The notes beneath the pieces are model-generated. The model searched no databases. It was not told the origin of the DNA and was given only the letters and a program-made list of their open reading frames with translations. From the sequence record OV696612: DNA of 50,143 nucleotides; one strand, given 5' to 3'. This document shows, one piece after another, positions 44,680 through 46,222 of this stretch (within the stretch, counting starts at the first letter, position 1; each line of letters begins with the position of its first letter). Source of the DNA: Escherichia phage Perceval. The position numbers and the translations under genes are program-made.

Positions 44680-45762
44680 TTAGAACTGATAAACCAGACC
44701 TACAGCGACGATGTCGTCGGTATCAATACCAGCTGTTTTGGTAAACTTACTATCGTCAATTAAGTTGATTTTGTAATCAACAAAAGTGGACATGTTTTTA
44801 TTAAAGTAGTAAGTAGCACCGACATCGACATACTTGACTAAGTCTCGGTCACCATGAACACCAAGGTCTTTACCTTTTGACTGAAGGTAAGCAACAGATG
44901 GTCGCAGACCGAAGTCAAACTGATATTGTGCTACTGCTTCAAAGTTTTGTGCTTTGTTTGCAATATGGTTATTACCAAAAACGGTCATATTCTGAGTTTC
45001 AGAATATGTGGTAGCCAGATAGATATTGTTCGCATCATATTTCAGGCCTGCAGCCCATACTTCCGCATTTTTGCCGGAGGCATTGAATTTGCTCTTACCA
45101 TAGGCGACCTGACCGTCAGTGCGATCTGATTTAGCATAGGTTGCACCCACGCCGAATCCTTCATACTCATAAGTAGTGGAGAAACCGAAACCATCACCAT
45201 TGGCTTCAGTTACGTCAGTGCGGTCATTTTTACCCTGATACTGAGCAGCAAAGTTCAGGCCATCGACCAGACCAAAGAAGTCGTTGTTACGATAAGTTGC
45301 AACACCAGTAGTGCGACCAGTCATGAACACATCTGTTTGGGTCCAGGTATCACCACCGAATTCTGGCAGGACGTCAGTCCACGCACCGATGTCGTATGCT
45401 ACACCGTAGTTACGGCCGTAATCGATTGAGCCGTAATCACCAAATTTCAGGCCTGCAAATGCAAGACGGGTTTTGTCTTTGGAAGAACCTTGAGATTCAG
45501 CACGGTTGCCTTTGAATTCATATTCCCACTGACCGAAACCAGTCAGTTGATCGTTGATTTGGGTTTCACCTTTGAAGCCAAGACGGGCATAAGTAGTATC
45601 ACCATCATCTGCATCATTAGAGGAGAAGTAGTGCTTGGCATTAACTTTCCCGTATAGATCCAGCTTGTTACTGTCTTTATTATAAATTTCAGCTGCCTGA
45701 GCAGACATCGCCATCAGTACTGATGCAGCTACAGCAGAAATTGCCACTGTTAATTTTTTCAT
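44680..45762 (-). CDS. nmpC: outer membrane porin, OmpC/OmpF/NmpC (Lc) family
   Basis: 360 aa; signal peptide [31 protein letters not shown]-terminus, C-terminal ...VGLVYQF; between Q and S on the opposite strand, as nmpC in DLP12 and lc in phage PA-2. Confidence 0.9.
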
Positions 45763-46189
45763 TGTACGCCCTTTTTTTTGAACTATTATTAAAAAATGAT
45801 GTCACTGCGCGATAAATATTCATCTAATCAATGCGATTATTTCAAGATGTAAGTTTTAGTTTCTCATTTAATTTGTGAAGTAGATCTCTATTTTTATCTG
45901 AACCTTTTCTATCTAATCCTATTCATGGCTCTTGTTTGAACGAAAATAAATCTATTAGCTAATTTATATTAATGGCACTTATTTATAAGCACTCTATAAT
46001 TCTTTAGCTTAATTTAAACAAACTAAAAATAACATCGGAAATTATTCATTGGTTATTTGTTGAAGTTTTCTTATGTATTTGTGGTGGTGTTTTGAACACT
46101 CGGTGGCATTCTCACAAATATCATTTAGTAGTTTACGTACGTAAAAAATTGGTTATGCTGTTAAGAGTGGTTACTTCGTCACACAGCTT

Positions 46190-46222
46190 AAACCCGCCGT
46201 CGAGCGGGTTTTTCCATTTTTT
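46190..46222 (+). terminator. rho-independent terminator, candidate tR' (6S-type late leader terminator)
   Basis: AAACCCGC-CGTCGA-GCGGGTTT followed by TTCCATTTTTT, about 130 bp upstream of the holin gene. Confidence 0.7.

Follow-up and report, generated by a model that had tools for sequence, protein, structure and literature searches.

Does the porin gene carried by Escherichia phage Perceval (sequence record OV696612) act on the surface of the lysogen, or is it a silent relic or a cassette kept mainly for the physiology of the host? We analysed the whole stretch of 50,143 nucleotides (nt), here called the window, and all positions refer to it unless stated otherwise. The gene lies on the minus strand between the gene for the late antiterminator Q and the lysis genes, which start with the holin gene S. 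We believe, with a probability of roughly 0.6, that it belongs to an expressed lysogenic-conversion element (a moron) of the Lc/NmpC type that also contains the RNA IpeX, and that this moron swaps the OmpC and OmpF of the host for the phage porin. Phage-encoded porins of this type (Lc of PA-2 and NmpC of DLP12) have been known since the 1970s-80s, and for Perceval the exact protein, the prophage, and expression in the lysogen were already known. The present analysis adds the name NmpC/Lc-type instead of OmpC, a previously unannotated IpeX 3' untranslated region (3'UTR), the placement of the late promoter pR' and terminator tR' relative to the cassette, a position-conserved CRP site, and the finding that the cassette is matched by a tail tip of the OmpC type.

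The porin gene is intact and of the Lc/NmpC type

The porin is encoded by a single unbroken open reading frame (ORF) that begins with ATG and specifies 360 amino acids (aa).

44680-45762, minus strand: porin gene of the Lc/NmpC ("OmpD"-type) family, 360 aa (ORF listing, Pfam, NCBIfam, PDB chains, and pairwise alignments)

The product begins with a 23-aa signal peptide (codons 1-23, positions 45694-45762), followed by AEIYNK. The signal peptide is Sec-cleavable with an A-x-A end, and matches in full the sig_peptide that record J02580 gives for lc of PA-2. The C terminus reads VGLVYQF, that is, with the terminal Phe of the last β-strand. The eyelet motif PEFGGD of loop L3 is present, and alignment with OmpC and OmpF showed LPEFGGDT unchanged in all three. 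Pfam PF00267 (Porin_1) matched residues 29-360 over its full profile (1-337 of 337; E = 1.9e-151; 504.7 bits with a cut-off of 23.7), and solved chains of OmpC, OmpK36, and PhoE in the PDB aligned from residue 24 with E values of ~1e-134 to 1e-137. Because the identity to the solved OmpC and OmpF structures is 62-66%, we infer that the mature product is a general porin of 337 residues that forms an OmpC-like, 16-stranded trimeric β-barrel.

The initial annotation had described an intact minus-strand porin of 360 aa, with a signal peptide and a C-terminal Phe, between Q and S, and the ORF, Pfam, and the alignments all agree with it. No frameshift or stop was found in the alignment with Lc, and the gene also lacks the IS5 that follows codon 346 in K-12 nmpC, so that the reading frame is whole. 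The comparison with Lc and NmpC that had been proposed at the same time placed the protein with these two porins. Pairwise identity was 91.9% to PA-2 Lc, 91.9% to K-12 NmpC (with IS5 removed), 83.3% to P7 NmpC, 65.9% to K-12 OmpC, and 62.2% to K-12 OmpF.

The differences from Lc were not spread evenly over the protein. The first 98 residues are identical, and the 34 differing alignment positions include two deletions that together remove five residues. Apart from two isolated substitutions, the differences were clustered at residues 182-187, 217-227, 263-267, 303-306, and 335-347. These clusters probably correspond to the surface loops L4-L8, as judged from the OmpC/OmpF alignment, the positions of insertions and deletions among paralogs, and the established OmpF/OmpC fold.

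The same protein has been given several names. It is 100% identical to the RefSeq protein WP_000737271.1 of Escherichia coli LF82, and the same sequence is annotated as OmpD, NmpC, or OmpC in phages ev017, ev207, 2G7b, PhiR11_1, and others. The RefSeq name is "ompC: porin OmpC", and the protein passed the NCBIfam model "porin OmpC" (521 bits, cut-off 484), which is a subfamily model and not an equivalog. These labels would fit a bacterial ompC that was caught through a chromosomal flank or a mis-assembly, an explanation to which we give almost no weight: the identity is 66% to K-12 OmpC versus 92% to Lc/NmpC, there is no micF or ompC synteny, the gene lies between Q and S in a complete prophage next to icd, and identical copies are present in virion-derived phage genomes. 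We rejected chromosomal ompC, the label given by the Prokaryotic Genome Annotation Pipeline (PGAP), based on the 65.9% identity and on a prophage context that is not the ftp-ompC-micF locus. On its sequence the gene is of the NmpC/Lc type, and the PGAP/RefSeq name is imprecise.

The porin gene is transcribed in the LF82 lysogen

In LF82, the porin gene sits in a complete lambdoid prophage adjoining icd. Positions 27760-50143 of the window correspond to LF82 1172883-1195266 and positions 1-16557 continue directly from there, with 100% identity throughout. The window is a cos-opened circular permutation of the LF82 prophage Perceval that starts just before nohD/terminase. Positions 27760-27923 duplicate the 3' end of icd, which agrees with integration in this gene, the site that phage 21 and e14 also use. 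The 2.7 kb around the porin gene were 100% identical in many B2-type E. coli, including LF82, NRG 857C, and isolates of the O25:H4/ST131 type, and some match to this region was found in 5250 of 5426 complete genomes. The prophage was named "Perceval" in a study of LF82 that listed "Outer membrane porin NmpC", a TonB fragment, and SitABCD as its morons (PMC9928086).

In that study, RNA sequencing (RNA-seq) of LF82 placed the Perceval "Outer membrane porin NmpC" 10-fold over the prophage background in lysogeny broth (LB) (PMC9928086, Table 1). The gene coordinates given there (S1 Table, LF82 1189803-1190885) are exactly those of the Perceval porin gene. The values for the porin gene (PMC9928086, S1 Table), in log2 of fragments per kilobase per million mapped reads (fpkm), were as follows.

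LB overnight: 6.96 and 3.79
B1: 6.42 and 6.72
B6: 11.33 and 11.15 (~2,500 fpkm)
MB1: 7.13 and 6.98
MB6: 6.06 and 6.25

LF82 also has a second porin of the NmpC type, of 360 aa (LF82 1972941-1974023), of which 339/360 aa are the same as in the Perceval porin, with 88.6% nucleotide identity. It has its own IpeX-like 3'UTR, and its surroundings, between yedK and fliE, are a DLP12-like remnant (ybcM-ybcL-emrE). Its expression exceeded that of the Perceval copy and followed the same pattern over the conditions. The two genes differ at 123 of 1083 nt, the longest identical run is 86 nt, and only reads with a mapping quality (MAPQ) of at least 30 were counted; the RNA-seq signal is therefore largely specific to the Perceval copy. 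At the RNA level, then, these published data show that the porin gene is expressed in a lysogen, and that this does not require prophage induction.

These data bear on the view that the gene is a quiescent relic, like nmpC in E. coli K-12 and B, and that lysogens make no working porin from it. In favour of a relic, IS5 has inactivated the K-12 gene, nmpC is described in reviews as not expressed in many strains (PMC3333887), and the LB overnight values above are modest and variable. Against this stand an ORF free of IS5, frameshift, and stop, differences from Lc that are gathered in surface loops, the conservation of the predicted promoter, CRP site, ribosome-binding region, and terminator, and transcription at 10-fold over the prophage background that reached ~2,500 fpkm in B6. 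We consider a relic very unlikely.

The 3'UTR of the porin gene corresponds to IpeX

The porin transcript would end in a structured 3'UTR with the following features.

44518-44679, minus strand: porin 3'UTR, an IpeX-type RNA of ~162 nt, with three to four hairpins and then an intrinsic terminator (alignment, folding)
44524-44541, minus strand: intrinsic terminator of the porin/IpeX transcript, GGGGCGTTTCCACGCCCC then ATTTTT (terminator scan; kept in K-12, PA-2, P7, and JL22)
44629-44668, no single strand: long hairpin ATATGTTGCGGGAGGC...GCCTCCGCAACATAT, the first IpeX stem-loop on the minus strand (sequence, folds)

IpeX is an RNA of 167 nt from DLP12 that is produced from the phage porin promoter within the porin transcript, and the DLP12/PA-2 form has been reported to repress OmpC and OmpF post-transcriptionally (PMC12197685, PMC5069750, PMC3617542). 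The Perceval 3'UTR was identical to those of DLP12 and PA-2 at 178 of 187 aligned bases (95.2%), and the DLP12 and PA-2 sequences were 100% identical to each other. Judged by this alignment, the 162-nt 3'UTR of the Perceval porin gene is IpeX RNA. When Rfam was searched with the complete window (gathering thresholds) and with positions 43900-46700 (E ≤ 1), no family was assigned to the 3'UTR, and the only matches were two at chance level; IpeX has no Rfam model, and was identified by the alignment to DLP12 and PA-2.

The predicted fold was more stable than those of shuffled sequences (-53.6 kcal/mol; z = -6.2). Two P1-like phages, P7 and JL22, have the same series of hairpins and the terminator, with a sequence identity of ~75%; in 8 of the pairs, both bases have changed. 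This covariation is suggestive of a conserved structure, in an RNAalifold alignment of six sequences that represent two independent lineages only and in which the P7 and JL22 rows are partly out of register. The RNA of the 3'UTR is likely to be the effector of OmpC loss as much as the porin protein is. On the plus strand, CTTTTT directly follows the hairpin at 44629-44668, which may thus also stop read-through from Q.

The porin cassette is inserted between Q and the late promoter

The gene and its 3'UTR are part of a longer segment that separates Q from the late promoter.

44108-44491 (alternative start 44093), plus strand: late antiterminator Q of the QuuD/82/H-19B type (Pfam PF06530, Phage_antitermQ, E = 1.1e-53; RefSeq quuD)
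45763-46128, no strand assigned: AT-rich upstream region, the right-hand part of the cassette, 27.6% guanine plus cytosine (GC) (~90% identical to K-12 and PA-2; absent between Q and pR' in Shiga toxin (Stx) phages)
46132-46159, plus strand: late promoter pR', with -35 TTTACG at 46132-46137 and -10 TATGCT at 46154-46159 (homology to VT2-Sakai and H-19B segments)
46166-46189, plus strand: initially transcribed segment and Q-utilisation site (qut) after pR' (same homology)
46190-46217, plus strand: tR', intrinsic terminator of the short pR' transcript, AAACCCGCCGTCGAGCGGGTTT then a T-run (terminator scan; homologous to the annotated VT2-Sakai terminator)
46352-46567, plus strand: holin S of the phage 21/EssD type, the first late gene past pR'-tR' (Pfam PF04971, E = 2e-35; RefSeq essD)

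Perceval Q is 80-83% identical to the Q of Stx phages and of the same family. The homology to H-19B and VT2-Sakai ends at ~44440 and picks up again at 46129 (blastn and translations), and the last residues of Perceval Q, IVANNSN, stand in for the longer C terminus of the Stx-phage Q, which overlaps pR'. In H-19B and VT2-Sakai, the body of Q runs straight into pR'-tR' with no cassette. From these breaks in homology, positions 44441-46128 are therefore taken to be a 1.7-kb insertion between Q and pR', in the opposite orientation. By its homologies and layout, this segment is a lysogenic-conversion moron of the Lc/NmpC type with its own terminator and a predicted promoter. The locus was collinear with J02580 (89% over 2.1 kb) and with DLP12 (blastn), in agreement with the earlier proposal that its arrangement is that of lc in PA-2 and nmpC in DLP12.

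The late promoter lies at the right-hand end of the region upstream of the porin gene. Positions 46129-46213 matched, at 78-79%, both H-19B and a segment at the end of VT2-Sakai Q whose annotation reads "putative late promoter / Q-utilization / terminator", and the pR'-tR' segment is nearly invariant in K-12 and PA-2. The initial annotation had assigned ~430 bp of AT-rich sequence to control of the porin. The composition holds (45763-46190: 428 bp with 28.7% GC, compared to 49.6% for the whole window), but the assignment does so only in part, since the outer ~60 bp (46132-46190) belong to pR'. Because pR' and tR' are on the S side of the cassette, the porin gene lies outside the Q-dependent late operon and is not read antisense by the late transcript. 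A pR' located just after Q, which would place the porin gene antisense to late transcription, was also considered and rejected: there was no convincing promoter in 44492-44680, and the homolog of pR'-qut-tR' is at 46129-46213.

The predicted promoter is associated with a conserved CRP-like site

Two elements upstream of the porin gene are candidates for its control.

45817-45845, minus strand: predicted porin promoter, TTGAAA (45845-45840), 17-nt spacing, and a weak -10, TGAATA (position and sequence kept with P7 nmpC)
45871-45891, minus strand: proximal CRP-like site, ATAGAGATCTACTTCACAAAT, centred 119 bp 5' of the ATG (annotated CRP binding site in J02580)

The counterpart upstream of P7 nmpC has TTGAAA, a spacing of 17 nt, and TAAACA, then TTTGTCCGCAGTGAC. 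Transcription from the predicted promoter would start near 45810 and give a 5' untranslated region (5'UTR) of ~48 nt. A scan with a strict consensus did not pick up this promoter.

The proximal CRP-like site is the same at 21/21 bases in Perceval, K-12, and PA-2, and is annotated in J02580 at 109-129 bp upstream of lc. P7 and JL22 have a perfect TGTGA-N6-TCACA at 119 and 120 bp from the ATG, respectively, although the flanking sequence can no longer be aligned. Because the position of the site is conserved, control by cAMP-CRP is predicted, and this conservation suggests that cAMP-CRP activates expression of the porin. The ~30-fold rise in condition B6 is compatible with such control but is no proof of it.

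Two other candidates for control were not adopted. The distal "CRP site" of PA-2 (46166-46186 in the window) covers positions +1 to +21 of the transcript from pR', at ~415 bp from the ATG, and its conservation is better explained by the function of pR'/qut. The upstream sequence CTTACATCTTGAAAT is one that we take to resemble the C1 box of ompC, an OmpR site. We did not adopt control of the OmpR type because nmp mutants were reportedly first selected in ompB (ompR) backgrounds.

The moron would replace the OmpC receptor of the host

Replacement of OmpC in lysogens and the resulting exclusion of OmpC-dependent phages are the classical model for Lc, with receptor loss as the precedent from PA-2. 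Applied to Perceval, the model starts with transcription of the cassette in the lysogen without regard to the phage repressor, a step that the published RNA-seq of this prophage shows; the promoter would be that of the cassette itself. The mRNA would give a mature porin of 337 residues, exported by Sec and assembled into an OmpC-like trimer, and its 3'UTR would give IpeX RNA, lowering OmpC and OmpF after transcription. The net effect would be that OmpC and OmpF are replaced by a phage porin with different loops L4-L8, such that permeability is kept and the OmpC receptor is gone.

The tail tip of Perceval is of a type that fits this model. The C-terminal 250 aa of the tail tip protein J (18174-18923, plus strand) are 96% identical to J of phage 434 and 57.6% identical to J of lambda. 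Phage 434 uses OmpC, and its J confers OmpC specificity on lambda (PMC11101478, PMC3509688). With a J of the OmpC-binding 434 type, Perceval and its own relatives would be the first phages to be shut out, as in the classical case of PA-2. We conclude that the exclusion model is supported and strengthened, not proven, by the conserved IpeX 3'UTR and the 434-type tail tip. The C terminus of J is also 100% identical to J of several Stx1a and Stx2c phages. In uropathogenic E. coli (UPEC) CFT073, two genes annotated as nmpC were up at 37 °C, in both RNA and protein, while ompC fell (PMC12890032).

Several points weigh against an expressed, receptor-swapping moron. Both the promoter, whose -10 element is a poor one, and the dependence on CRP are predictions. 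Expression of the Perceval allele is supported at the level of RNA, the two LB replicates were 9-fold apart, and the contribution of the Perceval porin may be redundant with that of the second NmpC-type porin of LF82. The activity of IpeX was established for the DLP12/PA-2 sequence, from which Perceval differs by 9 substitutions and 3 indel positions over ~188. The OmpC specificity of Perceval J is deduced from the 96% identity. The CFT073 genes are nmpC by annotation.

The cassette might instead serve mainly the physiology of the host, with phage exclusion incidental or absent. It could act in nutrient uptake (catabolite-derepressed), in permeability to antibiotics or bile, in adaptation to heat or to the temperature of the host, or in antigenic variation of the main surface protein. 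Such a role would fit control of the CRP type and the sharp increase in expression under one culture condition. It would also fit the induction of nmpC-type porins at 37 °C in UPEC and a link between NmpC and heat resistance (PMC12890032). Perceval bears other morons for host fitness (sitABCD, emrE, iss/bor, and the TonB fragment), and variation restricted to loops also fits immune selection. These roles are compatible with exclusion, however, and the coupling to IpeX and the OmpC-type tail tip are what the exclusion model predicts; the PA-2 precedent, too, is one of receptor loss. A mainly physiological role is plausible, though we think it less likely than not.

A more elaborate form of the receptor swap is that the cassette and the tail tip make up a matched self-exclusion circuit under cAMP-CRP control. 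In such a circuit, the porin protein would fill the role of the pore and IpeX RNA would remove OmpC, the receptor of the 434-type J. The IpeX hairpin at 44629-44668 would terminate read-through from Q, and transcripts that cross the weak IpeX terminator would run antisense into Q and damp late-gene activation. We offer the circuit as a whole tentatively, as a rather unlikely extension.

The RNA-seq profile of the neighbouring genes in LF82 was uneven. Q was high in all conditions (log2 fpkm 6.1-10.8), rusA and ylcG were at background (2.3-3.5), and S was low in LB. In the macrophage 1-h samples, the Q signal exceeded that of the porin gene. The high Q signal may come from sense transcription, from antisense transcripts that pass the IpeX terminator, or from a separate antisense RNA; antisense read-through into Q, as in the proposed circuit, would account for the high Q read count in the lysogen.

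In pathogens of the B2 group, such as the adherent-invasive E. coli (AIEC) LF82 and ST131, cassettes of this kind can alter the major surface antigen, permeability to antibiotics, and susceptibility to OmpC-dependent phages. These effects bear on phage therapy and on the interpretation of resistance by porin loss, a relevance that is real but established.

Other genes of the Perceval prophage

An operon for a manganese/iron ATP-binding cassette (ABC) transporter of the sitABCD type (22393-25842, minus strand) lies in the b region, with the tail fibre genes on one side and attP/int on the other. Its ATPase passed the NCBIfam equivalog model (593 bits, cut-off 393), and the operon is an expressed Perceval moron in PMC9928086. 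Between ren and ninB is a cluster of genes outside the phage cycle (38663-42170), with emrE (38663-38995, plus strand), the large serine recombinase gene ybcK (39251-40777, plus strand), and a gene for a lipoprotein-like alpha/beta hydrolase of the BD-FAE family (41127-42170, minus strand). The segment 3' of Rz/Rz1 (48280-49380) contains the gene for the serum-resistance lipoprotein iss/bor (Lambda_Bor domain, minus strand). It also contains, at 49000-49380 on the plus strand, a 126-aa ORF with the C-terminal domain of TonB only, the expressed "TonB fragment" moron in PMC9928086.

Two small genes lie between holin S and the endolysin (46572-47122). The first (46572-46886, plus strand) encodes a YdfR/DUF1327 protein, and the second (46883-47122, minus strand) is a 79-aa ORF with no family match in a patch of 31-37% GC. 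K-12 DLP12 lacks both, and rrrD directly follows essD there. The endolysin (47257-47790, plus strand, 177 aa) has a hydrophobic N terminus, which suggests a signal-anchor-release (SAR) lysozyme with a pinholin of the phage 21 type. The same pairing is annotated for the DLP12-derived lysis genes in the record of phage 434B.

Comparison with known systems

The closest known systems are the porin loci of PA-2 and DLP12. The Perceval porin has 91.9% identity to PA-2 Lc ("protein 2" of J02580), and its gene, like lc, lies between Q and the lysis genes in the same orientation. The upstream sequence is ~90% identical, including both annotated CRP sites (21/21 bases each), and the 3'UTR is 95% identical. 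However, the Perceval porin is five residues shorter (360 vs 365 aa), and outside this locus the two phages are different mosaics. With DLP12 (qsr') of K-12, Perceval shares the gene order ybcN-ninE-ybcO-rusA-ylcG-quuD-porin-essD and a Q/IpeX segment that is 96.5% identical, whereas the body of the porin gene is only 85.5% identical at the DNA level. K-12 nmpC is broken by IS5 after codon 346 in a defective prophage; the Perceval gene is intact and its prophage complete.

The NmpC/"OmpD" porins of the P1-like phages P7 and JL22 are more distant, at 81-83% identity. Their loci have kept the CRP site 119-120 bp 5' of the ATG, the -35 TTGAAA, the core of the 5'UTR (CGCAGTGAC), and a 3'UTR of multiple hairpins with a terminator. 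In contrast to Perceval, their cassette is in a quite different backbone, next to ssb, the CRP site is a perfect palindrome, and the L4 loop is longer. A match to "OmpN" in Salmonella phage SPF_0923 was set aside as a chromosomal ompN flank and not a phage porin.

With chromosomal OmpC, OmpF, and PhoE (2J1N, 2XE2, 2OMF, and 1PHO), the Perceval porin shares the full-length Porin_1 domain, the PEFGGD eyelet loop, and the C-terminal YQF. It differs from them in sequence (62-66% identity) and in being phage-borne, and its L4 is 11 residues shorter than that of OmpC. Its control is predicted to be of the CRP type, unlike the OmpR-dependent ompC-micF arrangement.

The late region of the Stx phages 933W, VT2-Sakai, and H-19B (Q, pR', tR', tRNAs, stx, S) has the same Q family, a homologous pR'-qut-tR' module, and a conversion gene between Q and S. 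In those phages stx is downstream of pR'-tR' and so is Q-dependent. The porin cassette of Perceval is upstream of pR', reversed, and predicted to have its own promoter, and it is expressed in the repressed prophage.

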